Shown: positions 18,001 through 56,857 of the stretch, piece by piece
How the letters are laid out: each line of letters starts with the position of its first letter
Numbering within the stretch: the stretch's first letter is position 1
Assembly (NCBI GenBank): GCA_965285935.1
Contig: OZ260662.1
Location: 98,952,001 to 99,016,000, forward strand
DNA length: 64,000 nt
From: Ophelia neglecta
Lineage: Eukaryota
Direction of reading: 5' to 3'
Position numbers and translations under genes: made by a program
Notes under the pieces: model-generated
The model's database searches: none
Seen by the model: only the letters and a program-made list of their open reading frames with translations
What the model was told of the DNA's origin: nothing

Positions 18001-21000
18001 ACTATGGACATTCTTTCCATTTAACCTATCAAGTTCCTGGTAAATAGCCAAGAAATGCTATTTCACTCTTTATGTTCACGAATATCCGTTGCTTTTCCTA
18101 TGTTTGGTGCAGTTTATTCGTGGTGCTTAAATTGCCACTCTTCATACCACATGCTTTCCATTGTGCTGACCTTGACCCCTTGCCTGTGTCGGTTTTTGAT
18201 TCTGATACCGACTGGAATTACTTGTAATAAAATAGAAACTGAGGAGCCCTTTATGTTGAAGTGTGTCCTTTAAGACAAACGGTTGACATTTTGAAACAAA
18301 CACATGGAAGGCATGAAAATTAAATCGATAAGTATGTTAAATTCACAGGACAAGAAGGCACTTGAAAATATATCCGCCATGTGTAGAAAGCACTGAATAT
18401 TCAAGCAGACTATGCTTGAATTTTTGAATTTCTGTACACCGCTACCATTAAGGATATGATTTTTTATAGGCTATATAACGCAGTTGAAGACGCAAAGCAT
18501 TGTATAATGTTGATGTTTATAAATAAACTGCATAAAATATTACATATTATCAACATGGGCAATATTTAAATTCAAATAAACACTTTTTAATACACTCGGT
18601 TTGTAAACACTCGTCTTAAAAATGCTCAGTTTTGCTTTGTAAATCGGCAAGAGGAGTGTAACTGTATTTTCCCCTTGGACAAAAACAATAACAGATAGAT
18701 TCAACAATATAAAATCCGTACTAATTTGAAGAGTAATAATAGCATTATGTAAATGAACGTTGGTTTTCCCTGTAGACACGGCGAACGGACACAACAGCTT
18801 GATTTCAAAATTGGGTGAAAAAGTGCATTTATTCTTATCCCATTAAAATGTAACATTTATCTGGATTTGTTTACATTTTCTTCGTAGGCAAGTTAAACAT
18901 GTAAACGTTTATTCACAGATATACAATAAGAAGCAAAAGTATTTCGATAGCGAATGGAATAGATTGGACCTCGCTGTGCATCTTTTAATGATATGCTGTG
19001 TCATTCTGAGGTTCGTACTTAAATCCGAAGATTTTGTTTGGGTCCGAATGTGCTATGCGTCGGCACTCTTATTGTTCTTTATACGGTTTTCGGACGTAAC
19101 TCATCCATGGAGAACAATAGGGCCAAAAGTGATCATGATACGCAAAATGGTAAGAGTAATCCTAATTTAATTTCATAATAAGTTTAAATATCATAAGTAG
19201 CACCGCCCATAGTTTGTCAGTTTATTTTAGAAATATGCATAAGCTCGGTGAAAGTTGTATATATTTGTTATTTCATTCGAATAAAATGAAGCACAGCATA
19301 TTTGGCTTTTTTTACGTTACAGCTTGTTTGGATGGTTAATTATTGACAATCATTGTGTGTAATATGATTGCAGCTGGCTGAGATGATGCGGTTTATGTTG
19401 ATCTTTTTATTGTTCATGTTTGCCTTCGGAGTAGCAATCCACTCCCTCCGTTTTCCAAACAGCCAATCTTCATGGAGTATCATTATAAGTATCCTTTATC
19501 AACCTTACTGGAATATTTTTGGAGAGTTTTTCGAGGAAAACGGTCAAAGTAAGTGTTTGAATGACTGATGCAATCTTAACATGGGCATGCAACACAGAAT
19601 CGTACTTAACAATAACATATTGAGAGAGGAAACACTCATAAATTGTTACTAAGATATCCAGTCATTAACATTTCAAAACTGTATTTGTAAATGTCCTTCA
19701 ATATTCTATCTGTAATAGTTCTGCCAGCCGGGGATACTGATATTTGTACAAACAATATGACGCTACACCAAATTAACCCTGAAGAATATCCTAGGTGTGC
19801 AAAAGCATCTTGGTTGGCCGAGGTTTTGCTAGCAATATATATATTGCTGACCCATATTCTTTTACTAAATCTGCTTATAGGAATGGTAAGGTAAGATTCC
19901 CAATTTTGGTTCCTTGCGTTAAAATTTTAAAGGTTTGTTTTTTATCCGGCAAAAATAGTTACATATTTAAGACAATTTTGCCTCCTAAGTGTCATTTCTG
20001 GATTAACAGCTGACACTAGTTATAGAAATTTTGTATGCTTAATAAATTTGCGTTTTTTATCATTTTCAGTGGGAAGATATAAATAATATAAATTAAATTA
20101 AGCCTCAGGATATAGTTTTATCTCGGTGGCGCGTCTATCCATGGGCACGTCCTGAGCATCCAGCGATAGTTAAGGCCATGGTTGTCGTAAAAGGACAATC
20201 CTAATATGTTTCTCTATTAAGTGACTGGTTAACTGGTTTTTTTCTACCTGGGACTTCTCTACCCCGTAAACTAAACTTTTACATACATCATTTTAAATTT
20301 GCGGTTTGACATAACTCACAGATGGCTGGAAAAAAACATATTTCTACTGACCGATTAGAGGAAACAATGGCAAATCTTTCTTTTCACACAATGAATTTCA
20401 CAGTTCCAACATAGGGAGTGGACCCCAGTTGGTCCATCTTTTCTACTACCTAGATATTGATTTATTTTTATTGAGATACATTCATCATGGTTTCACAAGA
20501 ACTAGAGGGTTTTGTCCAACCGTGAACTCCCTAGGTGATATTTCATTTTTATCCTGTGTGACCACTAGTTCATGTCGCTTCATGGTAAATGCCAGTTACT
20601 TCTCATTTAATTGGGATATCAATCCAATGTTGTTTAAAAAATTCACTACAGCTGGTGACAGATGTTTGTGCACCTGGAGCGCATGATTCCTGGTGATGTG
20701 GTTCCTGGTGATTTAATGGACTAGTCTCATTTAATGATGTTGCTGTTTCTGTCCGATCTCCAATCGTTTGTTATTTTATTGGCTACGATATCCGGAGTCC
20801 CGTAAATCGCCCTACAGGTTTAAATATGCTTCAAACGGCTCTACTTATGATTTCGTCTGCTTCGCGTACTTTGTAAACAAATGTATCTAATCACGCTGAA
20901 TAGATGTATCACACTATAAGTATAAACATATTAGAAATAAGCGGTAAAAACCGACATTCAATAATTTGAACTGAAAAATGCCATCATTTGAGCATAAATT

Positions 21001-22842
21001 TGATCGATTCTTTCCAGATTACTCATAGGTCCAGCACACAGTGTCTATATCTGTCTATTTCTTTCAGTTTGCAATTAATATATAAGCTGACCACTCTCTA
21101 GATAACCAATATTTCTATAATAAGGTTATCAACATATTTCCTTTGCGTTATCTGTTTGACAGCTTGCGCACATATTACAATAAACGCTTCGCTTTTCAAA
21201 GTTTTAAAACTTATAGATCTTATACTTTTGGCTTTATGGGAGTTGTCCTACAAAATAAAACCCAATAATATTTTGTTTCGTAAACCTTCTCTTTTATTAT
21301 CGCATCTTCATGAAACTGAGCAGTTTCTCCGTCTCCACAGTTCCAAGTACCAACACATGATGGAAAATGCCAAAGTTACTTGGCTGGACCATTGGTACTT
21401 GGTTAACTATGAATTCTACGACAACCCAGCTTTTCCACCTCCGTTTAACATCTTAAGCATGGCGTGGACACTCGTAAAGAAAATATGCGTATTAATCAGT
21501 ACCATCCAACCCATTACTGATAATCAAATACAGGACGGCAACATAGAAGCTAGCAAACCAAAGGACAGTCCTTTTTGTAAGTAACAACAAAACTACAAAA
21601 AAAAGCAATTAAATTTACATTTTCTCTTTAACTTACAAATCAGGTTGCTCTTGCTCTCAGCTTAGGCCGCAGCTGGTGATTTCTGATGGAGACAGACGGA
21701 TTTAATGAACTATACTTATTATTTCAATAATAATGTTGCTTTGACTGCCGGTTATCTACGCCCGTCTGGATAATCAATTTTGCCATTTAATGAAACCGAA
21801 AAACACAGATAGCCCGCGCTTTTCGTTGAACATAATTTTATGCTGTGATTTTTTCCTCTTTAAAAGGCAGCACACCGATATTAGCCTTGTGCTATACGAC
21901 GAACCTCTAGTGATGACTCGATGATATTTTGAATAAATGATTTGCCATCTTTAAATTTCCATGTTGTCTAGGTACACCATTTAAGGAAGAGACAATGCAT
22001 GTTCTTGATGACTTGGAGAAACGCATAACAAGGAAAATATTTGAAAAAAAAGATCCTTGGAGGTACATATGAGATTCTTAGCATTTTATCGTTTCTTCAT
22101 GCCTAATATAATATTCATACGCCAGAAGATTCGCGTTGACTTTGTATTGAACCCTGAAAATTGATTCCCACTGAGAGAAAGACCCATACAGGCCAGGGTT
22201 CCACGACAGGAAATGAAGGTTGAGATGGCTTTTGGGGGATGGGGTGGAGACCGTCATTTGGGCGCTTTATCTATATGAATTACAGAAAGCACGAGTGTTA
22301 ACGAATTATTTGCAGCAGCACTATTTGAATATACAAACATGAATATTATACATGTATTGATCCGGCAAGTGACGAATGGATTATTAAATATACTAAATAA
22401 TCACTCAAGTGTCATCAAGACTGAATGTGATATCAAACACAGTCGTTTACCCCACTAGCATCGTATTAATGTTTCTTGTGCATATAGGTATTTATACACT
22501 AGCGCCATCGGTTGATTACTATAAGATAACTAGAACGGGACTAAAGCATGGTACACAAGGAATGCATCTTAAAATCAATTACCATTTTATCCTAAAATAT
22601 GATTCGGATACTTACTACGGTTGTGGGGGAATTTATTAGTTTTCAATACGTTTGTGATATATATGTGATTCGCCAATTAATTGTGAATTGTCGTAACAAC
22701 TATATTCTTCTTCTATTGTTATGTCCTATTTAGATTGCCGAAAGAAACGCGCAGCAGTTTTCAACATTCGACTCTACAAAAAGAACACACGAAAACAACA
22801 ACAACCCTTGCCTACAGGTTCCATCTAGAAAGTGAGAAGTAA
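2980..22842 (+). CDS. Divergent TRPM-family (melastatin-like) cation channel gene, copy A; 18 predicted coding exons, ~849 aa
   Basis: Hand-spliced exons 2980-3052, 3235-3306, 3951-4034, 5439-5668, 5824-5910, 6034-6115, 10333-10425, 10698-10797, 11961-12041, 16043-16199, 16295-16630, 16841-16981, 18919-19149, 19374-19548, 19719-19890, 21341-21576, 21972-22062, 22734-22842. All introns are GT-AG with matching phases; total 2550 nt, no internal stop. TRPM motifs: LDKCYRENPEQAVQLVIR, FFYTTPMIKFY, EEIRQ, WNRLD, GPKVIMIRKM, QPYWNIFGE, LLNLLIGM, EFYDNPAFPPPF. Exons 1-3 are less certain. Confidence 0.88.
3235..3306 (+). CDS. TRPM-like copy A exon 2 (KTEGVEQTAVKSPGFKQDPKRGK), symmetric phase 1-1
   Basis: ttccatttctAG acceptor, GTtaag donor, 72 nt, open frame. 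Confidence 0.55.
3951..4034 (+). CDS. TRPM-like copy A exon 3 (KTKGVKQTVAKSPGIKAEPEPVDQPST), symmetric phase 1-1, paralogue of exon 2
   Basis: ttccatttctAG acceptor, GTaac donor, 84 nt, open frame. Confidence 0.55.
4342..5236 (+). mobile_element. 5'-truncated non-LTR retrotransposon 3' end (RTE-X-like), copy 2
   Basis: Duplicate of 1196-2075 with a longer (TACA)n tail. Confidence 0.8.
5439..5668 (+). CDS. TRPM-like copy A exon 4 (acidic linker then MHR3-like LSTIVTPDKLCTLFEE)
   Basis: aattttAG and GTtcgt splice sites; C-terminal part resembles TRPM LxxFLTxxRLxELY. Confidence 0.7.
5824..5910 (+). CDS. TRPM-like copy A exon 5 (LIENNPIPTHRNTIEVLKALVKLKDGQKP)
   Basis: Pyrimidine tract plus cAG, GTaggt donor, phase 0-0. 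Confidence 0.7.
6034..6115 (+). CDS. TRPM-like copy A exon 6 (SKKTLDQIGSIIDTKISKEVLDVYCKE)
   Basis: ttttaacAG and GTgagt splice sites; resembles the TRPM ITLxDIGxVIxxL segment. Confidence 0.75.
7780..8160 (-). mobile_element. Old LINE ORF1/endonuclease remnant (internally deleted paralogue of 51115-51800)
   Basis: PLKALSVEHI…TDDDIVNVICKF reading; ~310 bp missing relative to arm B. Confidence 0.55.
8170..9330 (+). mobile_element. Highly degenerate CR1/L2-type LINE
   Basis: Fragments VGVTYLPPNTD, KPTRIT, TDHYPVF, KPAKITAIF…NNYR, KEAFRII; paralogue at ~49980-51100 (-). Confidence 0.7.
10333..10425 (+). CDS. TRPM-like copy A exon 7 (ECVVKKTIVVGLFFNRERLVRHCILQVKYPI), MHR4 start
   Basis: ctgcAG and GTaagt splice sites; paralogous exon at 48737-48829. 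Confidence 0.8.
10698..10797 (+). CDS. TRPM-like copy A exon 8 (ATLLFASVYILKLYHLLKELNHRTFYEEAEQIAR)
   Basis: AG and GTtagt splice sites, phase 1-2; paralogue at 48395-48494. Confidence 0.8.
11783..11910. repeat. Perfect 64-bp tandem duplication, arm A only
   Basis: ttaaagcagcag…ttttccaga occurs twice; single copy in arm B (~46684-46750). Confidence 0.95.
11961..12041 (+). CDS. TRPM-like copy A exon 9 (RLKILAALVLDKCYRENPEQAVQLVIR)
   Basis: ttacAG and GTaaat splice sites; classic MHR4 LLDxCYxxDExxAxxLL motif. Confidence 0.9.
12320..15825. mobile_element. Arm-A-specific composite insertion in intron 9 (hAT-like ends, Pif1 fragment)
   Basis: Absent from arm B; hAT-type termini …tttgcgcgaccCTA (ends 12882) and CAGGGttggaaaaaccc (starts 13736); 19-bp tandem duplication at 15779-15816. 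Confidence 0.55.
14565..14736 (-). pseudogene. Pif1-family (SF1B) helicase N-terminal fragment, frameshifted
   Basis: MELNVDQPRALDLVLAGHNLFMTG/QAGTGKTVTLVNIIKKLQTLGKCVAVTATAT: Q motif, Walker A and motif Ia. Confidence 0.8.
16043..16199 (+). CDS. TRPM-like copy A exon 10 (RLEEPWLNE...FEQRLFHVWKGFF...HW)
   Basis: tatAG and GTgagg splice sites; end of MHR4 (QxxLxxxWxG). Confidence 0.88.
16295..16630 (+). CDS. TRPM-like copy A exon 11, pre-S1 region (…FFYTTPMIKFYYYA)
   Basis: tttcAG and GTaact splice sites; FYxAPxVKF motif. Confidence 0.9.
16841..16981 (+). CDS. TRPM-like copy A exon 12, S1-S2 (…IEYIVWLWAGTTFAEEIRQ)
   Basis: ttgcAG and GTagtt splice sites; EExRQ motif. Confidence 0.92.
18919..19149 (+). 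CDS. TRPM-like copy A exon 13, S3-S4 and S4-S5 linker (YFDSEWNRLD…IGPKVIMIRKM)
   Basis: cacAG and GTaaga splice sites; WNxxD and GPKxxMIxKM motifs. Confidence 0.92.
19374..19548 (+). CDS. TRPM-like copy A exon 14, S5 and pore (…FAFGVAIHSLRFP…YQPYWNIFGEFF)
   Basis: ttgcAG and GTaagt splice sites; PYWxxFGE pore signature. Confidence 0.93.
19719..19890 (+). CDS. TRPM-like copy A exon 15, post-pore loop and S6 (C…RC…WLAEVLLAIYILLTHILLLNLLIGMV)
   Basis: AG and GTaaga splice sites; an alternative in-phase acceptor would start at 19728; two conserved pore-loop cysteines. Confidence 0.9.
21341..21576 (+). CDS. TRPM-like copy A exon 16, TRP domain (…AKVTWLDHWYLVNYEFYDNPAFPPPFNILS…)
   Basis: ccacAG and GTaagt splice sites; ExxxxPxxPPPF motif. 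Confidence 0.9.
21972..22062 (+). CDS. TRPM-like copy A exon 17, rib-helix-like (CTPFKEETMHVLDDLEKRITRKIFEKKDPWR)
   Basis: tctAG and GTacat splice sites; paralogue at 37958-38048. Confidence 0.8.
22734..22842 (+). CDS. TRPM-like copy A putative terminal exon (LPKETRSS…FHLESEK*)
   Basis: Long pyrimidine tract plus tttAG, correct phase, TAA at 22840-22842. Confidence 0.65.
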
Positions 22843-23854
22843 AAATTTAAAAACCGTTTTCCATCAGTCACCGTTAAATGACTCATTCTTGGTTTATGGT
22901 CCAAATGGGTAAGGCCTATTAAAAAATGGATAATTTCCAAGTTGTTTCATGACAGTAGAAAACTACAAAGAAAATTTTACAAGGCAATAGTTTAGTATTC
23001 CGCATCGCTTGGGTCTCCCAATTTTTCACGTATGCATTTGTTTATGCTTCATGTGTCCACCTGGTTTCGAATTGCGAATATAGATATATTTAATGGTTTA
23101 AGTATAAGTGTGACTGTGTGTAGTTTATTCCGCTGTCACTAAGCGTACATAACAGAGAGTTTGGCAACTAATTTGTATAAATAGATCCTACTCGTGCTAT
23201 TAATTACAGTGTTTTAAATTTAATTAATATATCCTACCTTTCTTTATAAATCTAAGTATTGTTACATGATTTTATAATAATACCCTTCGATTCGATTTTA
23301 ATATTGTTTTGAGGTCACATATTTACAAATAATACATACTATATCACCAAATAAGGTCAATTTATGATGACAAATCAACATATTCATGGGTAAATAGTAG
23401 AAGAATGCAATATAAATAGTTGTTATGATGTATTAATGACATGTCACACATGTCAAAGGTTGCTCTTTCTTTGTTTAATTGCTGATTGGCTTGAAATAAT
23501 TACGTGCTACTAATTTTTTATTCGTGTTTATACCAATTATTTGAGATTGTATGTATAGCACATTTCCCTTTATACATTGAAAAGCTCCCATTGAGCTCAT
23601 TTAATAACGATGAAAGGAGCAATTTATCAATGCCAATATTATCATAATGCTTTTAAAGAGTGCATATAAATTGGTCCAATTGTCTTGCGAGTGTTTATGT
23701 TAAATACTTTAGCCTGCACAGATTCTAGAGATATGTTTTATTCATCTGGGATGGTACTTGGCTGATTATTATCTGTAAATGTGCTAAGGGCGTCCAGTGG
23801 GGCCGGGCGGATGAGAACAAATTCTATTGAATAAATCTTTCAGAGTATTTTTAT

Positions 23855-24190
23855 TTCATGTCACATCCGTTAGCAAGGCGTTAATGTTTACCAAGGGTAT
23901 TGATAAAGACATTATAAGGATAGAATGTTTGTCAAAAAAAAAATAACCCAAACTAAAACAGACGATGTCAAGCTGTTCTGTTTATTTGGTTAAATGTCTG
24001 ATTGCTTGACTGGATGTCACTGTCACATCCGTTACAACAGATTCGAAACCTTTATAATCATAGCAAAGTTTAAAAATAGTTCACCTACATATTACTCATG
24101 ATCTACTAGAGGTCTCTAGGAGTGAAATTACTGATGGCTCGTGTTGTTATATAGGGGAACATGATGATGATTGTGTCACAACCGTTTTTA
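23855..24190. repeat. Repeated TGTCACA(T/A)CCGTT motif, probable non-autonomous DNA transposon
   Basis: Motif near 23859, 24021 and 24174; mirrored in arm B (35797-36135). Confidence 0.4.
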
Positions 24191-24442
24191 TTTATACTGT
24201 TTTCAGAAATTGATGGGGGTTAATAGTATGTATGGGTATAAAATCATTATTTGAACATACATATTATATTTACATGAGAGTTTAATCAATGGTAGTGCCT
24301 ATAATGTTAGCCCAATTCATAAGGCAAATTCCGTTAAAATAGTTTATATTGATCACACAATTAGTTGGATTTGCTAGGCGCGGCCAAAATTTAATAATTT
24401 CATTGAACATGTTGGGATAAAACCAAAGCCTAACAACCTTAA

Positions 24443-24690
24443 CCCTCAACGGCACGGAAGGGTCTTTTTTGACCCGGAAGGGTATATAAACCATTGTAAA
24501 ATTGTGGATTTTTGAGTTGCGTAAACATGGTTCCTGTTTATCCTCAAGCTATATGAGCGTAAGTTCAGTGTTTTTTATCAGGAATACTTGTACGGACCCT
24601 ACTTTGTCAAAATAAGTGCTTTCCAGGAATAGGCCTGCTATTAATCTTAAAATGAGCATAATAAACACATTTTTTTATGGCCTTATAGGC
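24443..24690 (+). mobile_element. piggyBac-like non-autonomous element end
   Basis: TTAA followed by CCCTCAACGGCACGGA and a GGGTC-n-GACCC subterminal palindrome; right boundary approximate. Confidence 0.55.
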
Positions 24691-25671
24691 TACAACATGG
24701 GAAGGAAATAGCCAATCAGATGCACGGCGTGCAAACAGAGATAATGGTGAGGGGCTCTTCCTGTTTAAAAATAAATCATTCATTTTTTAGTAAATATCAT
24801 GGCAGTTGGTCATTAAATAGTTTATTATATCTGATGTTGTAATTGAGGAAATAATATCAATAATATGTGTTTTGTTAAAGAAAATAAGTAGAATTGCACT
24901 TTACATGTATGTGTACTACTTGCTCAAATACGAAGTAGGTGAAATTAACAGTGTTCAAAGGGGGTAAGCCTCCGCGTTTAATCAATAGCCTACTGATATA
25001 ACGAAGAAAACGGTGCAATCGCATTTTAGGTAGCGCCGTTTTATGTGCATATGCTGAAAAATCGAGCTGGCAATGTTGTGTTTAAATATTAAGTAACCCA
25101 TTTCTTATAGAATGAGCTACAAACTAATATTAATGTGCTATTCCAACGATTGGTTTTTATATGTCATACTCAGCTAGAGGCTATAATAGCATTTATGGCA
25201 AAAGTCATTCCATGTTGAAGCCTAATAAGACAAATTCCCATTTATTCACACTATCTTTTTTTATCATACGGTTTTGACTAGTGACAACAGTGTCTACCCC
25301 CCCCCCCCCCCCAATGTTCCTCGTTTCACAGAGAGGTTTTTTAAAGCAATGAATTATTAATAATTTTGTTATTCTCAATATTATTCATTGCTCTTCTTTT
25401 ATCCCTGAAGGTGTCATTTTTAATTTCAATATTATTTGTATAATTTAATTAAAAGAAAACAGGAAGCACTTATGGCACTGAGTTTGCGCCTTTTGTTTGT
25501 TCAAAAGCTACTTATTTTTTATCAGTGTGGCGAAAGAAAGGTGAAGGTCCCTGAACGTAAATATCCGGCGTCTCATTTGGCAGACATTTCGTCTGCACGA
25601 AACACGTTTGATGACTAAGTTTTTACAATGTACAGAATTTAATGATGGCAGTTCAAAATAATAAGACGCAC

Positions 25672-26089
25672 CTGCTACGGCCTAAACATTGGCCTTTTCT
25701 TCCACTGCTGCTGGTCCGGTTGGAAATGCTATGTACTGAGTGGAGAAGTTATTTATTGCCGCCACAAACTGCCAATAGGCCTTGCTGACGGCGGACTTGG
25801 ACATCCCCATCCTGTCGCCGCAGAGCACCATAAAGCCACCGGAGGCAAGCTAAGACAGGAACACCAACACCACGTGAAGAACGGGAAGGGCGTGTCCTCT
25901 GTTTGTGGGGCGCACGAAACCAAAAAACACCATCTCGCACAACTTATGGATATACTTGGTATCGAAACGGAACTTCTCCCTAATCTGCTGCTGACTGAGA
26001 ACCTCAAGAGGGTTAAGCCTATCTGGGAAAAGACGAGTAATCGTTGCTTCTTCCTCCACACGGACTCTAGCGCGTCTCAGGGCAGCCAT
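25672..26089 (-). pseudogene. PIF/Harbinger (HARBI1-like) transposase exon 1, two in-frame TAG
   Basis: MAALRR…FPDRLNPLE…EKFRF…RPTNRGHALP…VLVFLS*LASGGFMVLCGDRMGMSKSAVSK…QYIAFP…NV*AVAG followed by a GT donor; follows the HARBI1 N-terminal HTH region. Confidence 0.85.
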
Positions 26090-26498
26090 TTTCCAAGTTC
26101 AAGTCACCTCCAAAGGTAACTTGGAAAATGACCAAGTTCAAGTCAAATACTTGCCTTGAACTTCCCAACATCCCAAGTATTTTTTTAAAACACACTTGGC
26201 GCCAGAAAAGTAAAATACATCAACTGTGTGTTTGCTTTTCCGTTTGTCCGTTTAATTATTAAGTAGTCGTCTCACTAAGTGATCAATAAAGGAACTAAAG
26301 GACACCTAGTACAAACATTGAACTAGCACAGTTTTGACCTAGCCGTGTCATCTAAGACGTATATATACTGAGAAACTACGATGAAAAGCTAAAGGCGAGG
26401 GAATATTTTGTTTAATCCATAGTATGTTCACCCACATTTTAAGCCATCGAAACAGCTAATAACAATCAATTCTTGACCGACATGTAAACATCCCATGG

Positions 26499-27964
26499 TT
26501 TCACATGTAAAATTGTAGCATCACTATATTGGTGCCAGAGTTTAAATGTATCATTCAAATAGAACTTAATGTATTGCTTATTAGTGTAGAAGTGTTAGTG
26601 TTAAGGGGTATTGCCTAAGGTACATTGGCATACTGAACATTGTGTATATCGTTCTCACCACAGCTTGATTTTAATTGTCTTATTTAACTTTTGGCCATAT
26701 CAGGGCCTATTGTGTACATGACTGCACATGCATTGTTCTGGTACCTGTCGACATACATACAAGGTGTTTCTGACAGGCCAAACAGGAGTTAGAGAATACA
26801 GTTGGTTGAAAGCACATGGAAAGTTAGGTGCCTCTGGCATAGGGCAGACACACCAGTATTTTACCAGCAATTTCAGTGAATTCCTGCAGTATGGAATTGT
26901 GAATCATATAGAGTTTGTGTTTAGTGAGTGTAGCACTGTGTTTTAAGCCGTGGAAATTCTTTAGTGTTAAATTGTGATTGGCTTGGAAATATTTGTGAGT
27001 CACGTGCGCAGTGGTAGGAGATGAATTCCTGCAGCGCTAACTCGTGAATTGCGTAGAGAGTTAGTGTATAGTTAGTGGAGTCATATCCCAGCAGTAGTGG
27101 AATTTCTTAAGGGTGTTTGTGTTAATTTAATGTATAATTCGTGTGAAAAAGCCACGTGATGGTGACGGGGCAATTCTAGAGCAGTGGAAGTGCGAACCTT
27201 GCTCAATGTAAATCTGTGTGGGTGCTAAACTGCTAATGGGGCTACAGTTTGGTTGCTGTGGAAATTGCTTTTAATCTCCTGCCTGCTGCATGTCGAAACC
27301 TGTGAAGGGCGGCCATCGGGTGAAATGACAGACATTATACAAGACTTCCCACCCCAGCAAGTAGTAACGTCTACCTGTATTATGAGACCACTTTAGGGAT
27401 GAGTACATCAACTACATTGCATTTATTTTGTCATGTTTAATTTGATTTCTATATATTTACTTTGAGAAAGGAGTGCCAGTGAACTTTATTTTCATGCATT
27501 CATGCTATCTGTATTATCGTGCTTAAATATTATGTCTTGACCAAGGGTGTCCATTATGAAGTAACTTTTGAAGGTGTGTAGTATTGCATATACTTTGTCA
27601 GATTTAATTTGATATCTATGTATCTACTTTTGAAGGTGTATACTTTTGATGAACCACGGTTGTTCTCATCCTGTGTCATTGTAATTGTGAAGTATTCAAG
27701 TTAAACCAGGGTGTCAATATTATTTTGTTTAATACTATTTGTTGGACCAAGGGTGACTATTGAGGTGATATTGACATACATTGAAGTTTGAGTAAATGTA
27801 ATGAGGCTGGATTGAGTACGACAACGGGGAAAACTTACCTATGAATAAACACTTACCTTATCTTACCTTACGGTCGTTGTTCTTGTGATGTTGCTTGTGG
27901 ACAGGTGTCCGTATCGAACTACTCTCGCACGCCCTTTAGCCAACACAGGCACCCACCTGTGACA
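26499..27964 (+). mobile_element. Solo LTR (~1.47 kb) inserted in the left TIR
   Basis: T(T)TCACA…TGTGACA ends, CATGG 5-bp TSD (26494-26498 and 27965-27969), AATAAA near 27845; TIR homology resumes right after it. Confidence 0.75.
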
Positions 27965-28444
27965 CATGGTATCGGATCTTTAAAACGTTCACAAAGTGAA
28001 TGCTTTAAAGAAAACCAGTGTATAATGCAGAATGTAAGAATTTATAGATACAATATATTTCTAAGTAGTTTACATCATCTTTATTATCGGACGAAAACTG
28101 TTTCCATTAAAATAGAGACTTACCCCTTGATAGGGGGTTCGTAGATAAACGCGCTAAACCTAGTCACACGACAAAGCTAGCAACTCCTCATGTATTGCAA
28201 GTTATACATTGGTTATCGTTAAAGTCTGTTCAAAGGTGGAAAACGCTCCTGTTTAAAATCATAACAGAGCTAATTGCATTATTTTCTAATTAGTAATACT
28301 TTCTTGAAATAACCTATAAAACTAACGACACCGATGACGTATTGCATAAGAATCTTATTTTACAGATGGTTTGATGGTTGTTTTTTATGCAATCAATGTA
28401 ATTATAACTAATCTAAGAACAACTTTCGTGGGTTGCCTGTTATC

Positions 28445-28870
28445 ATTCATATTGTTACCGGAGACAAAGAGTGTTAACGAGGACGCTTCTGGGCCCACCG
28501 AGAAAGCGGAGTATTCAGAGTAATACACACTGTCATCCCAAGCAGTCATGTCAACTCGGAGTTTATAGGGTCCGCTAGAAGTCAGCTAGTGGACGGTTTC
28601 TACCCCCAGCCATAACTCACCACATGGGTCCACGAACCCGGCAATCCAGCCATGATCGGCTGATATCATCGAACCATCAGTTTCCAATGAGTCACTCCCG
28701 GAGACCAAATTGGAAGTTTTGTTCTCTTGGTCGAAACTGTAGAAGATGTAGTTAGCCGTTGAGCATTTTACAGGACATTCAACATCTGAAGTACACTCCA
28801 GGTCCGATATAGTAGATTTGGACCATTGTACCACAATCTGGCTGTACCCGCACAATTGACGCCCTGACAA
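28445..28870 (-). pseudogene. Captured PAN/apple-like plus fibrinogen C-terminal (FReD) gene fragment
   Basis: AGFVDPCGELWLGVETVH*LTSSGPYKLRVDMTAWDDSVYYSEYSAFSVGPEASSLTLFVSG matches the FReD core; the upstream SDVECPVKCS…FYSFDQENKTSNL is PAN-like. Confidence 0.82.
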
Positions 28871-29539
28871 ATTTAAACCCTGACTGTTTTCAGCACCAGC
28901 AGTATCTACTTTGTGAACGTTTTAGAGGGCCGATACCATGGGATGTTAACATGACGGTCAAGAATTGATTGTTATTAGCTGTTTCGATGGCTTAAAATGT
29001 GGGTGAACATACTATGGATTAAACAAAATATTCCCTCGCCTTTAGCTTTTCCTCGTAGTTTGTCAGTATGTATACGTCTTAGATTACACGGCTAGGTCAA
29101 AACTGTGCTAGTCCAATGTTTGTACTAGGTGTCCTTTCGGTCCTTTATTGATTACTTAGTGAGACGACTACTTAATAAGTAAACGGACAAACGGGAAAGC
29201 AAACACACAGTCAAGTTGAGTAAACTAAGACAACAAACATCTAAATCGATTACAGTGGTTCTCATGTAATGTAACATGAATTTCATTATTAGGCCTACGA
29301 GACGCCGAAGCTGATTTCCAAATGTTGAAAATATAGTACGGCAGTTAGCGTCCTAAAGTAAAATATTGCACCTCCAAATGCAAACATTATTTTTATTTAC
29401 AGCATTCAATTGAAGCTGGGTAACACCATCTACCTACATATTAAAGGAAGTGATATGCATTTTATTAGAAACAGTTAAAAATGGCTATTACCAATCAGCT
29501 GTCGGAGGCGGAGGTCTTATTTCCGCGGTAGTGTGGTAA

Positions 29540-30458
29540 TTACCTTCTTATACTGACATGGCTACATGTTAAACCTGGTACATTAAATTAAGAAATCGGC
29601 TCTGCCAATTTAAATGTAATAACTCCTTTATTTAAGCTTCAAAAAAGAGCAGAGCGTATTGTTATTTCTGCGGCATATGCTATCACTTCGACTCCAACTA
29701 TAATAAATGTTTGTCTTTAATACTGACATTTACATATACAATACAAGTCAGTAAAATAAACTGTATATTTATCTTCACTTCAATCATTCCTTTCTCTTAA
29801 TTTTAATTATTTAAATCTGAATTGACATTGTAATATATTTACCAAGGTATAGTTTATTCTCTAATTGGTATGCTGGCCAATTGCACTTGCACTGTTTCCA
29901 TTAAAAATATCTAATAAGTACTTAAAACCAGTGATTAAGGGCAATGTTGGCAGAAAAACTTTTAGGTATCAAGGTGCTTTAACTTGGAATGCTCTTCCCG
30001 GGTATGTCAAGTCCAGCAGTAGTATCGAGACATTTAAGTCAAATTGTAAATCCTTTCTGCTAAACAGTTTTCACTGACTTGGTATCTGCCTGTAGGGAAT
30101 GTGACATGTTGTTTATTCGTTTCAAACATGTTTGGTAGCTTCATCCTGCAAATCGAGTGCTTCTTTTGCTGTGATAGTGGTATGTGATTTTTTGTGGATC
30201 ACCATGGATATAAGTTTTGTATTAAACTTTCTGGTGCTATCCCTTTCACTGGGTTACATATCTGTGTCATATCCTTGGTTTATGCTCAACGGTGCAGTTA
30301 AAAATCGATGGTGCTATTTGTGATCTCATTATAGTCAGACATGTTGGTCATTGTATGGGTTTTATTGCCTTATTTTTATTTTGAGGATGTATGTTCGATC
30401 TGTGATATATTGTATACTATGTTTTTACAGTGAATAAACTGAACTAAACTAAACTAAA
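29540..30458 (+). mobile_element. CR1/L2 LINE 3' fragment
   Basis: LFKLQKRA…, GRKTFRYQGALTWNALP…SIETFK; AATAAA plus (AAACT)n tail at 30434-30458. Confidence 0.8.
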
Positions 30459-31330
30459 TAATGTTTGTTCATACCCCAATATGGGGTCATATCCTCGTTA
30501 ATCACGATTTATTTTCTTTAGTGTATGCATTTATTTTATTGTATGTGCATTAATCTGTTTTACATATGTAGTTATTTCTTTGTATACTAAGCTGGATATT
30601 ATATAAATTTTGTGATCAATGAACAATTTTGAATTGCAATTTTTACATATGATTAGTGTAGCACGGACATTTAATAATGCGCCATCAATGGAGCCAGAAT
30701 ATAATGAAGGGAATGAATTCTTCGCTTTATTAGATCAACATAGTGCATCCAAAATGCAATAACTATAAGGCGTCCCCCCCCCCCCCCCCCGATTTTATTA
30801 TCTTATCACTTATCATAATATGGGGCGCGGGGCTGCACTTTTCATAGTATAAAAGGATACACGGAACCCATACAGCTAAGGGCACTTATGCTTTATCTTC
30901 TTCCATCGATACATTTTAAATGAGTAGCTGTCACAACTTCTGTAATGACGAGGGAATGATTTTTACAAATGACCTTAGAAAATCTGGAGCAATGAGTGCA
31001 AACATTTCTCATTATTAGTTAGTGAAACATAAACCGGCGATTGTACCGTTTTCTTCGTTGTATCAGTAGGCTATTGATTAAACGTGGAGGCTTTACGGAG
31101 GCGGATGTCATGGCTATTTCTTATTTGCACCAAGTAAAACAAGTCAGCAAGGCCAGGGAAGGGCTGGGGATTAATTTTAGGCTTTGAGAAAGGATAAGTT
31201 ATAATCTCGGAAATTCCTTTTGCATTATTCCTCAAGGCTCCGCGCCTCCGCTTTTAATCAAAAGCTTAACAATATAGTATTTTTGTGATTGGGATATCTA
31301 CTTTTAGTAAATTCTGTAAAGAAGATTTTA

Positions 31331-31760
31331 CCCTCAACGGCACGGATAAAAACACACATCGGCACGGACCAAATTTGACCCGGTGTACTTCTTTTGTCAA
31401 TTAATAATGCAAATGTGTATAGCATCCTGACAGTTGCTACTTATGTGTTTCCATACACAATTGTCACCATATGTAAACTTAATTTACAGTAGTTTTAGTG
31501 TTTAGATTTAATATTTCGTACCCTTTTGAAAATGTTGATTTTTGAAGAAATAAAAGATTATACAAGACTCAGGTTATTGCAGCCAACAATATTTGCATCC
31601 AAAATAAAAAGAAAAACAGTAACTTATGAGAGACCAAAAGATCTGTATGCAAAGTTATGCTCTAGAAAGGAAATTTTCAATATTTGGCTTTTTTGGGGGT
31701 TCAGAAATGACCAGCACTGGGTCAAAAATGACCCGTAAGACTTCTTCCATCCATGGCTAC
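31331..31760 (+). mobile_element. piggyBac-like non-autonomous element end, same 16-bp TIR as 24443
   Basis: CCCTCAACGGCACGGA, subterminal CGGCACGGA repeat, GGGTCAAAAATGACCC palindrome near 31719. Confidence 0.55.
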
Positions 31761-31769
31761 ATAAACAAT

Positions 31770-34700
31770 ATTGGTTTAAACATATTTATTTACATAATTT
31801 GGATTTTACAAAAGCCGAGGGCTTAACAAAGGTAATTTCCAAATAAATCATTGAGACAATATTTACAAATATGCGTGAGATAAAAATTAGATGATGAAAT
31901 GAGATGAGGGAGTTACTATACATATAATCAATTGACATTACATGCAATTTGTCTGCTGAGTCCAAAACACCAAGAAACTGGCAAGTAGACAGGGAGCGAT
32001 ATGATGCGACAATAATAAGAATAATCAATATAGTAGTCCAGATACGGGTTATTAAAGAAAATGAAAGACATATTGAAACAAAATATTTGTGAAATAGCCT
32101 ACTATTTACAACGAAATATAACAATAGTCACTGGTTTATAAAAAAATGATGCACAACCGATAATAACACAAATACATTAGATAATATTGCAAGAAGTATG
32201 ATGATGGTATAACAAAGCACCTGAACCAGGTAAGCATGAAGAACTCCAGAATAGGGTGTTCCTTATTTGTCAACCACACAGACACGCGAGAGGCCCACCC
32301 GCCGCCACCCATGCATAACTAGTTATACATAGGCAGCAGCGGACAGGCGCCCCGCGCATCCGCGTTCAAGGGCCCACAATGCAGTGCCAAGATGGACCAG
32401 GGAACCACTTAGTAGAGACACATGGAGATAATGTCGATAACATCAAAACTACGGCAGACTCTTTACAATAAGTAATTAGATAAAAAATAAATAAATGGGC
32501 CACTGTTAATCAGTGCATTTCCCGAGCAATTGACCACATTCAGACAAAATGTATCCAAATTTTAATTGAAACGTGGAATAATTATAAATTGACAATGGGG
32601 TCATTAGGAGACAAATCTGTGTGACTTCGTAATAAATTGCTCAACAATATTGGATAATTCAAGGGACATGTCATGATCATCACAGTTAAGTATAGTAGCT
32701 ATGCAATTTTCTGGTGAAACAGAATGGCGGTTTAAGAAGTCGACCAGGCGATCGCGGAGGGACGCGTACAATGGACAATAAAAGAAATAGTGGGAAAGGG
32801 TTTCGTTTTCAACGCCACATAGGCAAAGCGGAGATGCGATACAGTGGTTAAAATAGAGGTGGTTATTCAGGCAACTACAAGAAAGTCTGCACTGTGCAAG
32901 AAATATCTGGGTTTTACGTGATCCAATAAAAAAATATTTCGGTTTTTTTGGGGGGCAGTTTCGGATAAGTACTTTGAATAATCGCTTGTTCGTGCATTGA
33001 CGAGTTTTTACGGGAGGGGTATTCCATTCACTTTTGACTTATAAAAGAAAGAAGATTTGTATTTTTGAGTTCTACATTTTGGAAGGGCTAAAAGATTGTC
33101 AGACAGACTACGTGTGCTATAAGGATGCGAAGTAGTTACCGGTAAATTTTCCCACAGTTGATTAGGTGTGTTGTGATTATATAAATCAAATAATTTTAGT
33201 AGCATCGCCATCTTGCGGCGTGACTCCAGAGTTTCCCAACCAACTTCGAGTAGAAGCTGGTTGTGTGAAGTGCCTCGCCTTGCACCGCAGACGAGACGGG
33301 CGGCCTCAAGGTTTAAGTTTTCCAAAACTTTGGTCAATTCCATGGAAGTATTATCGAACAGTAGAGAACCATATTCGAGAAGAGGTCTGATATAGGTCTT
33401 ATAAGCTATATCAAGGCCCTTCCTAGACATCTTATATTTAACACTTTTCAAAATATTCATTCTTTGGCTAGCTTTTTTACTGATGTTAAGAATATGCTCT
33501 GCCCAAGATAGAGTGTTGGTCAGAATAATTCCCAGGTGAGAGTGGGACGTTGTGTTTATGCAAGGAGTGTCGCCGAGTAATAAGTCCAATGGAGAAGTGA
33601 TGAGCTTCCTACTAAAAAGGATACATCGTGTTTTCGGCAAACTAATTGAAACCTTCCATGCAGTACACCAATTATTAATTAGAGAGAGGTCATTGTTGAC
33701 TGAGAAGATTGCAGAGGCTAGATTTTTTGATGAAAACCTATGAAATAAGGAGGTATCATCAGCAAAAAGAAAGATAGAACTGGAAATGTTGTGAATGATG
33801 TCATTTATAGATTAAGAAGAGAAGAGGCCCGAGAACAGAGCCTTGCGGAACTCCGGCTGGAATAGATTTATAAGATGAGGCACCGCCAGGTAGAACAACA
33901 CGCTGGCGTCTATCAGTTAGGTAGTCACTTACCCACGAGAGAGTGTCACCATTAATGCCACAAGATTTCATCTTGTGAAAAAGGCCCTTATGCCAGACCT
34001 TATCAAAGGCCTTAGTAAAATCGATGAAAACTCCGATGACTTGGTCTCCAAAGTCGATAGCTTTGTGTATTTGTTCACAAATTTCCAGTAATTGATTTAC
34101 AGTGGAATCATTTGGGATAAACCCAGATTGGTTAGGAACAAGAATGTCGTGTGACTTTAGATGCCTAAATAAATGGTCAAACATTAGTCGTTCGAAAACC
34201 TTTGATAAGCAGGGGAGTAGTGATATCGGGCGATAATTATTACAGTCATACACACTGCTCTTTTTGTGAAGGGGAATGACATCGGCAGACTTCCAAGCAT
34301 TAGGAAATTTACACTGGGATAAAGATATATTAAATAATGATGCCAAAGGTTCGGACAGAGGCGCGGCTGCCTCCTTAAGGAGAAAATTGCCTACTTTATC
34401 TGCACCTGTAGCCTTCGATGGATTTAAACTTTTTAGAACATCAAACACCTCAGCGGTGGAAATTACTTTAGTTTCGATAGATGGTTTGATGAGAGGGGCA
34501 TCAGTATCCACAGGCAAATCATCGTTTGTCCCTCATTAAATAGTTGGGCTTTATGGGAGGGATCAGTAATGACATCGGCATCATGATGCAAGGGTGGCGA
34601 CGTCGGAGAATAACATGTATTAAGAATAGTTTTCATTTATCTCCTCCAACTAGGAGAAGAAATGTCATTACCAGAAGACACTAAGTCAATAGCTTTGTCA

Positions 34701-35613
34701 TGCTTTGCTTTAGCTTCACGCACTAAGTCAGTAATAGGTTTCTTGCCAGATTATACCGACGAAGGTGATCAATGCCAACGTGTTTTACTTTGTGTAAACG
34801 GTCACGTATAATCATCTGCCGTCTTATAGTAGAGTTAAACCATGGCTTGTCGTGGGGTCTGATAGTAACCATGTGGTGAGGGAAACAATGTTCACAAATT
34901 TGTAAGAGAAGATTTGTGAAATTATCAGTTACGTCATCAATGTCTGCGAGAGAAAGGATCATGTCCTAAGGAGCGTTATATATTAAATCTCGGTAGAGTT
35001 CGCGATTCCCGTTTTTAAAGTCCCAGATCATTCTTTGGAAACATGGACGTTTGGCAACGGCATGGAACATTTCGAGATATATAGGATAATGGTCACAATT
35101 ATCCACCAAGCGAGGAAGTGTCCCTTTCGAAACCACAAGATCAGAATCATTAATAAAAATATGGTCTAGACAAGCTTCAGAGTGTGAGTCACTGCGGGTG
35201 ACATCGCTAATTATTTGTGAGAAACCACGCTGCTTGAAAAAAGCGTTAACGAGTCGACCGTCTTTATTTGTATGATCAGTTGAGCACCACTGATCATTTT
35301 TTGCATTTGTGTCGCCAATAAAAACCATAATGTTATGACTTTCAGAGGAAGATTCGATTACTTCGTTGATGCCACTGAGAAAATGAAGGCAGTCTTCGTT
35401 TGGAGGCCGATAATAAAAACACAGTAGCACGGAGATGTTTCGTACCTTTACACTTAAGCATATATTTGCTATGATGATTCTACTTCGGAAATGTGTTTCC
35501 CATTAAATGTCTCTGATAAATAAACAGCAAGACCGCCCCCTATGCCTTCACGGTCCCTACGAATAGGAGACATGTAACCAGGAAGTACAACAGATGAACT
35601 AGGGGTAGTGTTT
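31770..35613 (-). mobile_element. CR1-clade LINE, 5'-truncated, frameshifted ORF2 (APE endonuclease, RT, CCHC) with long 3' UTR
   Basis: RRDREGIGGGLAVY, YYRPP, GDTNA, LDHIF, DHYPI; NYRPISLL, QSGF, DFTKAFDKV, GVPQGSVLGPLLF, FADDT; CLCG…HYFFYC; stop near 32605; AATAAATATGTTTAAAC 3' end near 31775. Confidence 0.93.
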
Positions 35614-37179
35614 TAATTGTGTGATCAATATAAACTATTTTAACAGAATTTGCCTTATGAATTGGGCTAACATTATAGGCACTACCATTGATTAAACTCT
35701 CATGTAAATATAATATGTATGTTCAAATAATGATTTTATACCTAGACACACCATTAACCCCCATCAATTTCTGAAAACTTACAGTATAAATAGAAACGGT
35801 TGTGACACAATCATCAACATGTTCCCCTATATAACAACACGAGCCGTCAGTAATTTCACTCCTAGAGAACTCTAGTAGATCGTGAGTAATATGTAGGAGA
35901 ACTATATTTAAACTTTACTATGATTATAAAGGTTTCGAATCTGTTGTAACGGATGTGACAGTGGCATTCAGACAAAGTCAAGCAAGCAGACATTTAAACA
36001 AATAAACAAAACAGCTTGACATCGTCAGTTTTAGTTTGGGTCATTTTTTTTGTGTTGACAAACATTCTATCCTTGTAATGTCTTTATCAATTCCCTTGGT
36101 AAACATGAACGCCTTGCTAACGGATGTGACATGAAATAAAAATACTCTGAAAGACTTATTCAATAGAATTTGTTCTCATCCGCCCGGCCCCACTGGACGC
36201 CCTAAGCCCATTTACAGATAATAATCATCCAACTACCATCCCAGATGAATACAACATATCTCTAGAATCTGTGCAGGCTAAATTATTTAACATAAACAAT
36301 CGCAAGACAATTGGACCTATATATATGAACTCTATAAAAGCATTATGATAATATTGGCATTGATAAAGTGCTCCTTTCATCGTTATTAGATGAGCTCAAT
36401 GGGAGCTTTTCAATGTAAAAAGGGAAATTTGCTATACATAAAATCTCAAATAATTGGTATAAACACGAATTTAAAAACAAAACTAGAAAAAATAAGTGGC
36501 ACGTAATTATTTCAAGCCAATCCGCAATTGAAAAAAAAACCAACCTTTGACATGTGTGACATGTCATTAATACATCATAACAACTAATTGTATTGCATTC
36601 TTCTACTATTTACCCATGTATATGTTGGTTCGTCATCATAACTTGACCTTATTTCGTGATATAGTATGTATTGTTTGTAAATATGTGACCTCAAAATAAT
36701 ATTTTAATCGAATCGAAGTATAATATTATACAATCATGTAACAATACTTAGATTTATAAAGAAAGGTAGGATATATTAATTTAATTAAAAGCACTGGAAT
36801 TAATAGACGAGTTGGATTTATTTTTACAAATTAAGTGCCAAACTCTCTGATATATACGCTTAGTGACAGCGAAATAAACTACACACAGTCACACTGTATA
36901 CTTAAAACTTTAAGTATATCTATATTCGCAATTCGAAACCAGGTGGACACATGAAGCATAAACAAATGCATACATTAAAAACATTGGGAGACCCAAGCGA
37001 TGCGGAATACTAAACTATTGCCTTGTAAAATTTTGTTTTTTAGTTTTCTACTGTCATGAAACAACTTGGAAATTAAACATTTTTTACACAGGCCTTACAC
37101 ATTTGGACCATAAACCAAGAATGAGACATTTAACGGTGACTGATGGAAAACGGTTTTTTAAATTTTTACTTCTCATTTT

Positions 37180-48829: not shown

Positions 48830-49979
48830 CTTCAGTGGAAAGCAAGTTATATTTTAATTACTTTGTACTTATTACATTGCTAGTTGCTTATTTCATATTT
48901 CTTACTGGTCCGTCCTTACAAAATTGTATACAAAGATAGGACTTTAAAATATCCCACCGAAGTTTTTTCTATTTTATGATCTGATAGAAGGCATATATTC
49001 AGCTAAAATTAGTTAAACTTTACGTTTAGTGGAACAACTCATGACTACGAAAAATATTGCTAATACCAATTGATGTCAATTTAATGGATAAACTTGTCCC
49101 CTTAGCAATGCACATATTACAGTCCTTTCGGTGTGTATACATAATTTGAAACATTTATTGCAATGATGGCTGTTTTACACTACTTACATATTTATACTAT
49201 GAATCGTTCTTGCCAGCTGATGGTTCATGATTGCTATACAAGAAGCACATGAAACTAACGAAAAACAATAGAAAAAAGCCACGCCATTAAATTAAAAACA
49301 ATAAAGAATATACGAGAATAACTTCAACACCATAGAAACAGCACTTCAAGTAACACAATAATATTAAATTATACATTTATACATATGTAACTTTAATTGC
49401 CGTTTTAATAAAATATCTATTTTATACACAACACCCCAGATATGTACATAATTCTAAGATGAATAAAATACATACACAAATCAGATATAAAGACAATAGG
49501 GTTGAGAAGCAGTGATGCGCTTATAGGCCCTTTAAGTTGATTATGAATTTAGTATTGACTTTAAACTGGGTTTTATTGTATGAGGATCGCTGGTATGCCC
49601 TCCCGGAGGCGAGGATAAAGTTCCAACTGTCGAGACCGGTCACGAGCGATTACGCTGGCACCAGGAAAGAACAACTGTCGTTCCCCACTTACATATTAAC
49701 GTATAATCACGGAGTGCGTGTTGAACTCTTTTAAACGTAGATTTTCATTTGCACATTAGAGAAAAGGACAATACAAAGGTGACACATAGGTGCATAGCCC
49801 CAGTGGAATCCCGCTCTAAAGTCATCATCATGGTTTGAAACGATTAGAAAACATGTTTCTCATCGCAAAGATGCTTTTCACAGAGCTGGCCTGTCGGCGC
49901 CGGTCTAGTACTGCTAGGGCGGCCCGCGCCCGTCTGCCACCCAAACCACCCAAACTAGTTGAAATTCCGTAATCATATT

Positions 49980-51100
49980 CACTGCCAAACAATGCCGAAA
50001 ATCCGACGGTTTGGACAGAAACACCTTTGATGATGGGAGTTCATGGACAGTTGTAATCGTATTTTACGTACGTGCTTGTATATCAGTTTATAACGAGCTT
50101 AGTGTATAACAGTGATGATGGAGAGAATTTTGTATACGGTTGTTACCGGGAAGAACCAGCTATTATACGAAGTGCTTCTTTTTTAATGTTCATGTGAGTG
50201 TCCAAATATGAATTGTAGGTTCCTCCCCAGATTTCAAGGCAGAAACTGAGGTGTACTAACTAAGCCTAGGACACAGTTGTCGTCATCTATCGCATTGGAC
50301 AGTCTATCCGCCAAAAGTGTCAGAGCAAGAACTTTTTCGTCTAAATCCACAATGAAGGTCTATTATAATGTCGTTTTGGTTACTAAAGAAGTTGGCGATT
50401 TACATTAGGTTTTTCCAATAATTATAAGAAGAAAGGCGGGACAGCGACTAGATTTCTCAAAAAATTCTTTCTCCACTAATGGAAATTGCGGTGATTCCAG
50501 CAGGTTTAAATTATTGTGGCAATATATAATTACTGATAGAAAGGTTCATGATATGAGTTATTGGCGTTAAGACTGGTTTGATATATTTCGCAATAATATT
50601 GGAATATGAATATTGAATCCTAGCCAGAGACTACATCCTAAGAGAGGTTTACGATGTTCAGTATTTCTTATTATTCGACTGGAGCCATGAATATTGAGAA
50701 TGAAAACAGGATAATGATCAGTGGTTTCTAGGATGCCGTTTAAAGCACTACAAGGAAGCTGTTAATCTAGTAATCTTTGTCGGCTTGTTCATAGAAGGAT
50801 GGAAGGTAACAATGAGTGGCTAAACATATGGTCAATTAAGTTTGAAGTTTTGGGGTGACTCCTTCATTAACTATATTAAAGTCTGCCATTAAATAGTAAG
50901 ATTTAGACTCGGTTTTAACCATTAAGGGGACATTGCGTAGATTTCCATTCAATACTGAATTGTCGGTGTTTGGAGGATGATAGGTGACACCCACTTCTGT
51001 ATTATGGCCAAGTTCATATGAAGTTTTATCAATTTCAGTGTAGACAGATTCGCGGTGGTTATTAAAACCAGTAAGTCTTTTATGAGATTAAGTTTAATAT
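49980..51100 (-). mobile_element. Degenerate CR1/L2 LINE, paralogue of 8170-9330
   Basis: Reverse-complement match within the duplicated arm. Confidence 0.65.
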
Positions 51101-51114
51101 CATCCTTAACAAAA

Positions 51115-56462: not shown

Positions 56463-56857
56463 GGATAGTTAAAACATCCGCAAACCGGTCGACTTCAAAG
56501 GAAATCTTCAAAGGATAACTGTCCCCAACGCCTAAATTCTCCTCAAACATAAGTCGTGATCATTCTGTCAATTTCAACGAAATACATAGCCTACTGAACT
56601 TACTGCACAAGCGGTTATAGTCAACTCTTCAAAAAACATCATTTTTCAGGTTTGATATTAACTATAATTACATTAAACTACGTCAAGTTTGCTTTGAATG
56701 AGCAAGATCTTCGTCAGGAATGAACATTTGTCAAGGGAATTTGGAGCAACTTTGGTGAGAGTCTTGTCTTTATACTTAGAATTGTGATTCACGCCTGACT
56801 GATTTTGGCACTATACATTGTGTTGTCACCTTCACCTACTACACAAGAGCTTGTACA

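Follow-up and report, generated by a model that had tools for sequence, protein, structure and literature searches.

Positions 26,224 to 29,210 of a 64,000-nucleotide stretch of Ophelia neglecta DNA (the window; contig OZ260662.1 of assembly GCA_965285935.1, positions 98,952,001 to 99,016,000) are best explained as a non-autonomous DNA transposon with long terminal inverted repeats (TIRs), in which DNA of a fibrinogen-related domain (FReD) gene was probably captured during break repair. It would then be a single- or low-copy Pack-TIR with a dead cargo. The element has two TIRs and is flanked by a TCAA duplication. Its interior contains FReD homology with a stop codon and a hairpin at one junction, and two inserts are nested in the element. 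A preliminary description of this DNA did not list the insert resembling a miniature inverted-repeat transposable element (MITE), the junction hairpin, the intron-like DNA and the repeat pair that encloses the element.

Terminal inverted repeats and target-site duplication

A 280-nt pair (26223–26502 and 28932–29211) is detected directly by an inverted-repeat search of the window. After removal of a 1,466-bp insert from the left arm, the two arms (26224–26498 plus 27970–27997 and 28908–29210) align without gaps over 303 bp with 288 identical positions. The 15 mismatches are 6 transitions and 9 transversions (Kimura two-parameter distance 0.051). Without the insert the element measures 1,516 bp and consists of two 303-bp arms and a 910-bp interior (27998–28907), in agreement with the repeats of ~300 bp and the interior of ~900 bp described previously. 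The TIR seems to extend inward beyond 303 bp, but the left-hand bases that produce this match are part of the MITE-like insert, and the extension was discarded. As already described, no transposase is present; Pfam finds none in the six frames of the element, and the sole other family is below its cut-off (E 0.098).

The flanking TCAA direct repeats are present as well and are flush with both arms. Direct repeats of at least 4 bp occur at 0.76% of 200,000 random boundary pairs, a chance that rises to 1.46% if either of two boundaries is accepted. Shifting the boundary one base outward leaves only a 2-bp CA repeat, and over seven boundary offsets the target-site duplication (TSD) has 4 bp (or 2 bp) at most. 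The left flank contains nine copies of CAAGT/ACTTG in 230 bp (0.45 expected). The last copy forms only with the element removed, as in an empty site; this is a single motif across the join and hence modest support.

The insert in the left arm is bordered by CATGG at 26494 and 27965. The right arm corresponds to the uninterrupted site, where CATGG stands only once; this demonstrates directly that the left arm received an insertion. The large insert certainly entered after the TIR existed. It has imperfect short inverted ends (8/10 match), internal degenerate repeats and a single plus-strand AATAAA at 27844. From its ends, the 5-bp duplication and the AATAAA it is probably a solo long terminal repeat (LTR), as the preliminary description named it. 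Compared with the solo-LTR signature (short TSD, TG...CA ends, no coding sequence, polyadenylation signal), the 5-bp duplication and the AATAAA are present, and one terminus is canonical and the other is not. There is no second copy in the window.

Table 1. Features of the element and of its immediate surroundings (positions in the window).
Feature	Position	Strand	Basis or remark
Left TSD copy TCAA	26220–26223	none	boundary comparison
Left TIR, outer 275 bp	26224–26498	+	begins CTGTGTG; last bases are the CATGG target of the insert
Non-coding insert, probably solo LTR, 1,466 bp	26499–27964	+	ends, 5-bp duplication, AATAAA
Second CATGG copy (5-bp duplication from insert)	27965–27969	none	right arm carries one CATGG
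Left TIR, inner 28 bp	27970–27997	+	brings left arm to 303 bp
Hairpin across inner end of left arm	27977–28011	none	16-bp stem, 2 mismatches, 3-nt loop
MITE-like insert, ~210 bp (28009–28218), TTAA at 28005 and 28219	28005–28222	none	~17–23-bp inverted ends
AT-rich DNA downstream of coding piece	28223–28456	-	intron taken up with the cargo, or interior native to the element
FReD core fragment, 62 codons (AGF...TLFVSG)	28457–28642	-	Pfam, PDB, tblastn
Open frame preceding the FReD core in the same reading frame; degenerate, PAN/apple-like	28643–28880	-	best part 28807–28700
Right TIR, 303 bp, uninterrupted	28908–29210	-	arm alignment
Right TSD copy TCAA	29211–29214	none	boundary comparison
Outer 57-bp inverted repeat pair enclosing the element, 95%	24966–25022 / 31037–31093	none	inverted-repeat search
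Stop-broken frame ~135 bp from the element	25649–26089	-	open reading frame (ORF) reading

The captured FReD fragment

On the minus strand, a frame extends from the right arm's inner edge as far as 28457 and is interrupted by one TAG (28588–28586). By homology, the core fragment certainly belongs to a FReD, and the FReD core with one TAG in the preliminary description is thereby borne out. Pfam assigns residues 93–153 to PF00147 (Fibrinogen_C; E 2.1e-10, 41.3 bits, gathering cut-off 22). At E≤0.001 the core matches 58 PDB sequences and 1,306 library proteins, and the best relatives are ~50–55% identical. A word-indexed homologue search, which covered longer proteins only, found none among 478 candidates. 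In the family hidden Markov model (HMM) homology begins at AGF, and it stops near TLFVSG. The fragment spans profile positions 64–127 of 221; the N-terminal part and everything past ~127 are gone. The relatives P0038, P0009 and P0030 also lack the N-terminal FReD part, some of them after a degenerate PAN-like stretch, and are either natural short forms or prediction artefacts.

When 150 relatives are compared with the window by tblastn, all 202 matches lie at 28–29 kb, and no other FReD-like DNA is found in the 64 kb. Because all matches are confined to the element, the fragment is not a native gene. The decay of the cargo is light (one stop and no frameshift in 424 bp), as expected for an age similar to that of the 5% arm divergence. 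A cargo older than the TIRs is not supported: 4 of 19 conserved columns are changed, one of them beyond the end of homology, and at least 4 are changed in 35 of the 150 relatives. Most likely, the cargo makes no protein.

GT directly follows the end of the FReD homology, at the position where AT-rich DNA begins. The GC content is 32% in 27998–28456, 48% in the coding piece and 36% in the window. From the turn to AT-rich sequence and the GT, this DNA may be read as an intron. It has no local match in either flank (28223–28456), and the likeness between interior and flanks is not significant, since 12–88 of 100 null sequences scored equally well.

The PAN-like stretch and the GWI/AGF join

The pattern of the frame upstream of the FReD core weakly suggests PAN identity. 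A custom HMM built from five PAN segments gives 6.9 bits, the top score among 643 ORF pieces of the window (E 0.36 there), and this score is matched by 3 of 1000 shuffles. The hhalign probability is 2.6%, a value reached by 1 of 150 shuffles. Two cysteines expected for PAN are Y and S here. Pfam gives no family for either of two fragments of the stretch and PDB no match, in both cases at E≤10. Matches in Atlas are uninformative (recognition 1761, mark 2300), and phmmer against the 150 relatives yields nothing significant (best E 1.1). The PAN-like segment of the preliminary description is thus weakly supported, by the custom model and hhalign and not by Pfam or PDB.

The combination of both domains is known. 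In the relatives P0045 and P0029, and weakly in P0033, Pfam detects PAN_1 together with Fibrinogen_C, and cases of PAN plus FReD occur in molluscs (PMC7588048). The domain order in these invertebrate proteins is the same as in the cargo, whereas the spacing in the cargo is far shorter. Here, 23 residues separate the C-x-L position of PAN from the GF motif of the FReD; the four of six relatives in which both motifs were found have 81, 104, 232 and 319. The natural pairing and the short spacing point to a cargo copy that was internally shortened. Should the stretch indeed be PAN, the cargo would lack at least ~58 codons relative to the shortest relative measured (23 and 81 residues).

A deletion at the join of GWI and AGF, as proposed in the preliminary description, is plausible. 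The PDB alignment suggests a three-codon deletion, with DGS..GW as the FReD motif RRxDGSxxFxRxW. Of the 202 tblastn matches, 12 reach 28678 and 8 reach 28684, while 91 start at 28639. These 91 starts and the start of the family HMM at residue 94 favour a larger deletion or a junction, without proving it.

The PAN-like stretch also contains an adjacent six-residue repeat (ISDLEC/TSDVEC) that is reached by 16 of 2000 shuffles. It is a weak hint of a second template. Third-position differences between the two units were discounted as evidence of two paralogues because choosing the repeat by amino-acid similarity yields that pattern. A far-reaching interpretation would be an undescribed family with long TIRs and a 4-bp TSD that captures immune-lectin pieces from more than one paralogue, fuses them in frame and moves them through the genome. 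Such a family would provide a growing group of invertebrate lectins with domain-shuffled FReD exons or with hairpin RNAs, and template switches between old paralogues would explain both the ISDLEC/TSDVEC overlap and the join of GWI to AGF. Taken as a whole, this interpretation is very unlikely.

Junction hairpin and MITE-like insert

The inner end of the left arm is crossed by a hairpin whose loop ends at the point where the identity of the arms stops. It has no counterpart in the right arm. The z-score of its fold is -4.04 (1 of 200 shuffles), compared with 0.66 for the right arm (147 of 200). With the MITE-like insert removed, 15 of the 16 stem positions remain, as read from the junctions. 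Snap-back synthesis in alternative end joining leaves junction repeats of this type (PMC5728401), and the hairpin is read here as a putative snap-back repair junction.

The ends of the MITE-like insert are the only inverted pair of 23 bp with at most 3 mismatches at a distance of 50–600 bp in the window, by thresholds chosen post hoc. Kolobok elements combine a TTAA TSD with 5'-RR...YY-3' termini (PMC9587614). The insert shares the TTAA duplication and starts with AG, but one end is imperfect. Since ~210 of the 910 interior bases belong to this insert, the captured or native interior is closer to 700 bp.

Classification of the element

As in Pack-TIRs, host sequence unrelated to transposable elements lies between the TIRs, and the TSD is flush with them. 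The Pack-type reading of the preliminary description fits this anatomy and is the best one; Pack-MULE, however, is excluded by the length of the TSD. Mutator-like elements (MULEs) have long TIRs and TSDs of 7–12 bp (PMC10741241, PMC6431247). Plant Pack-MULEs resemble the element in their long TIRs and in the gene fragment that replaces the transposase, but the 4-bp TSD rejects Mutator despite the 303-bp arms. Among the superfamilies compared, Sola is the loosest fit. Its members have 4-bp TSDs, variable termini and TIRs of 11–1,124 bp (PMC10741241, PMC3627910, PMC3845634). The element shares the TSD length and falls within this TIR range, whereas TCAA differs from the AWWT/AWDT targets of the Sola1 and Sola2 examples in these sources.

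Kolobok was rejected for the outer element, which starts with CT instead of RR and has TCAA instead of TTAA. The CT...AG termini presumably fit the pyrimidine start of piggyBac. Nevertheless, piggyBac requires TTAA (PMC9587614), and the element has TCAA, one base off, on both sides. Ginger elements have TG...CA termini and 4–6-bp TSDs (PMC10741241); taking TG as the terminus (offset +1) leaves no duplication.

Retroelements with inverted ends were considered as well. The length of the repeats suits DIRS- or Penelope-type inverted ends. DIRS elements carry an internal complementary region and Penelope-like elements (PLEs) a hammerhead core. A retroelement of this kind, with DIRS-type inverted terminal repeats or inverted Penelope pseudo-LTRs, could have transduced the fragment via RNA. 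The absence of an intron between the PAN-like and FReD parts agrees with this, and terminal repeats of PLEs have mobilized host sequence, with a TSD (PMC6431247). However, the hammerhead core CTGANGA is absent from all four arm strands, and the arm ends do not recur internally (best 7–9 mismatches of 20). Rfam gives no match at E≤1 across 24300–32000. Additionally, the arms are symmetric to the base and intron-like DNA follows the coding piece. A retroelement origin is very unlikely.

Comparison with animal Pack-TIRs

The preliminary description held that gene capture by TIR elements is little documented in invertebrates. This view is outdated: Tan et al. 2021 (PMC8277862) list 370 Pack-TIRs from 100 animal genomes, 19 of these invertebrates, including five in the sea urchin (strPur2), all piggyBac, and the Ssk-FB4 element of Drosophila melanogaster. 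Exonic DNA is present in 13.4% of the Pack-TIRs in that survey, and gap-filling capture is given as the route for most of them. The element resembles these animal Pack-TIRs in its exonic DNA of non-transposon origin within TIRs, its TSD, its small cargo and its repair-type junction. The published ones are mostly hAT and Tc1/mariner elements with a known consensus and an identified parent, which is not so here. The words 'Sola' and 'fibrinogen' do not occur in 12 supplementary files of this paper. Capture of a FReD by a non-autonomous DNA transposon was not found in the literature searched, a weak negative because most subscription journals and Repbase lie outside that search.

Ssk-FB4 is likewise an invertebrate, non-autonomous element with long TIRs and host gene DNA inside (PMC8277862). 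It differs in having TIRs of ~700 bp and TSDs of 9–10 bp, in being multicopy and in carrying an almost complete, expressed gene; the present element has 303-bp arms and a TSD of 4 bp, is known from a single copy and holds a broken gene fragment.

A multicopy Pack-TIR family would be an alternative history. One capture in a donor element would have been followed by repeated transposition of the whole unit, scattering PAN/FReD fragments. In the survey, 56.9% of unique Pack-TIRs lie within 15 kb of their parent, whereas multicopy ones are always distant (PMC8277862). The window contains no parental gene, as a multicopy family would lead one to expect, and the long TIRs of Ssk-FB4 provide a precedent. 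Furthermore, both ends are intact, the TSD is perfect and most of the interior looks like cargo. On the other hand, nearly all Pack-TIRs in the survey are single-copy; only four (1.4%) are multicopy, with 3 of 23 in frog (PMC8277862). One copy is present in 64 kb. A cargo that covers profile positions 64–127 of 221 and bears a stop cannot encode a full FReD, and even a multicopy family would scatter pseudogene scraps, not genes. Such a family is unlikely. The preliminary description had inferred a transposon-based route for dispersing FReD domains; this locus, with its single copy and its truncated, stop-bearing cargo, does not support that inference, and multicopy cases are rare in the survey.

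Mode of capture

Capture during break repair in a TIR element probably accounts for the structure best. Transposition, the route of capture and the order of events, save for the late entry of the large insert, would be as follows. A transposase supplied in trans would have put the TIR element into a TCAA site within older repeat DNA. A double-strand break in the element, either here or in a donor copy, may have been followed by a template switch to a distant FReD locus. Repair would have copied coding DNA plus the adjoining intron, that is, a capture at the DNA level and not a retrocopy. Snap-back synthesis would have sealed the left junction and left the hairpin, and through a deletion or a second switch the PAN-like stretch would have come to abut the middle of the FReD. 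The MITE-like and solo-LTR-like pieces would have been inserted, and the cargo would have decayed neutrally.

Several points weigh against this reading. The TSD has only 4 bp (chance ~1%), and TCAA together with CTG...CAG termini fits no superfamily signature compared. A second TIR copy was looked for in the window and none was found; the repeat is single-copy there, and its status as a transposon family is therefore unproven. A search with a 25-mer of the repeat against prokaryotic genome contigs and a search of plasmids gave no match, as expected, and are uninformative for copy number. No parental FReD gene is present within 26 kb to the left or 35 kb to the right, a distance more in keeping with a transposed copy than with capture in place. 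The arms are asymmetric, with A/T on the left in 10 of 12 AT/GC differences (p 0.04), and share an identical run of 97 bp (p 0.04); the asymmetry hints at something beyond equal decay of the two arms. Finally, the 64 kb contain no other hairpin of the class to which the junction hairpin belongs, but the thresholds that define this class were set after it had been seen.

The structure might also have arisen with no transposon at all, by ectopic templated insertion of a FReD intron-exon-intron piece during which template switching also copied 303 bp of the fragment's own intron in inverted orientation. TCAA would then be a staggered-break duplication or a chance repeat. The single-copy repeat agrees with this. 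The open frame continues into the right arm at its inner edge, and arm and cargo could hence be one parental piece. For the 15-nt junction tract, a degenerate direct repeat of the arm's inner end is an equally good reading. Moreover, the region has undergone an inverted duplication of ~17 kb. Nevertheless, both arms terminate at the same base and directly adjoin the duplicated TCAA, an arrangement unexpected from template switching alone (chance ~1%), and inspection of the arm by eye shows no evident coding or signal-peptide-like frame. An origin by templated insertion alone is quite unlikely.

Genomic surroundings

The element lies inside an 11-kb, repeat-filled spacer between two inverted copies of a TRPM-like region. 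The duplication (~17 kb) is arranged tail to tail (7780–24363 and 35614–51798, 80–90% in blocks), and the duplicated unit is a multi-exon TRPM-like channel gene (PDB E 5.6e-7 and 0.005). The word-indexed search with a frame of this region, again limited to longer proteins, found no homologue among 86 candidates. The spacer itself is not duplicated, and the window thus offers no empty site.

Within the spacer, the outer 57-bp repeat pair has no perfect TSD, and a partial third copy begins at 31244. The stop-broken frame at 25649–26089 on the minus strand presumably resembles the N-terminus of a PIF/Harbinger transposase, an assignment that is not confirmed; Pfam finds no family in it, and the homologue search, covering longer proteins only, found none among 466 candidates. 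The CAAGT/ACTTG cluster (26094–26198) lies directly left of the element and includes an imperfect palindrome (26119–26178). It may belong to the enclosing repeat, as subterminal or promoter repeats. TTAA followed by CCCTCAACGGCACGGA is found at 24439–24458, with a direct repeat at 31331 and a degenerate copy at 31353 (31327–31368, ~31719–31826). They might mark one terminus of a TTAA-targeting DNA transposon together with its subterminal repeats; an inverted counterpart was not found.

The right edge of the spacer is formed by a fragmented long interspersed nuclear element (LINE) on the minus strand (32604–35502), with endonuclease and reverse-transcriptase (RT) matches in Pfam (E 1e-10 and 1.7e-22). 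A C-terminal frame and a short repeat tail at ~29900–30460 on the plus strand, seen by eye, are what we take to be a short LINE-like 3' end; Pfam gives no match there. Another LINE-like element (56780–61952, plus strand) consists of an ORF1-like frame of 362 amino acids followed by broken RT frames (RVT_1 E 6e-30) and contains a 210-bp duplication (60947 and 61598). Further repeats of the window are a tandem duplication of ~2.3 kb (1–2273 and 3147–5435, 98.5%), diverged shorter copies of the start of its unit (703–905 and 3849–4016), a minisatellite at 52212–52873 (52-bp unit, 12.8 copies, 91% matches) and a 325-bp tandem duplication at 54992–55638.

Implications

The only plausible output of the element is RNA. 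Read-through over the 303-bp inverted repeats could give a hairpin, one arm of which is split by the 1.5-kb insert. The element adds a case to a capture process already described in animals, and there is no evidence here of a spread of FReD genes. It provides a clean, layered example of TIR-mediated gene capture in an invertebrate, with a readable repair junction and ends of a type not assigned to a superfamily. If the family is in truth multicopy and carries FReD cargo, FReD expansions would gain a transposon-driven route.

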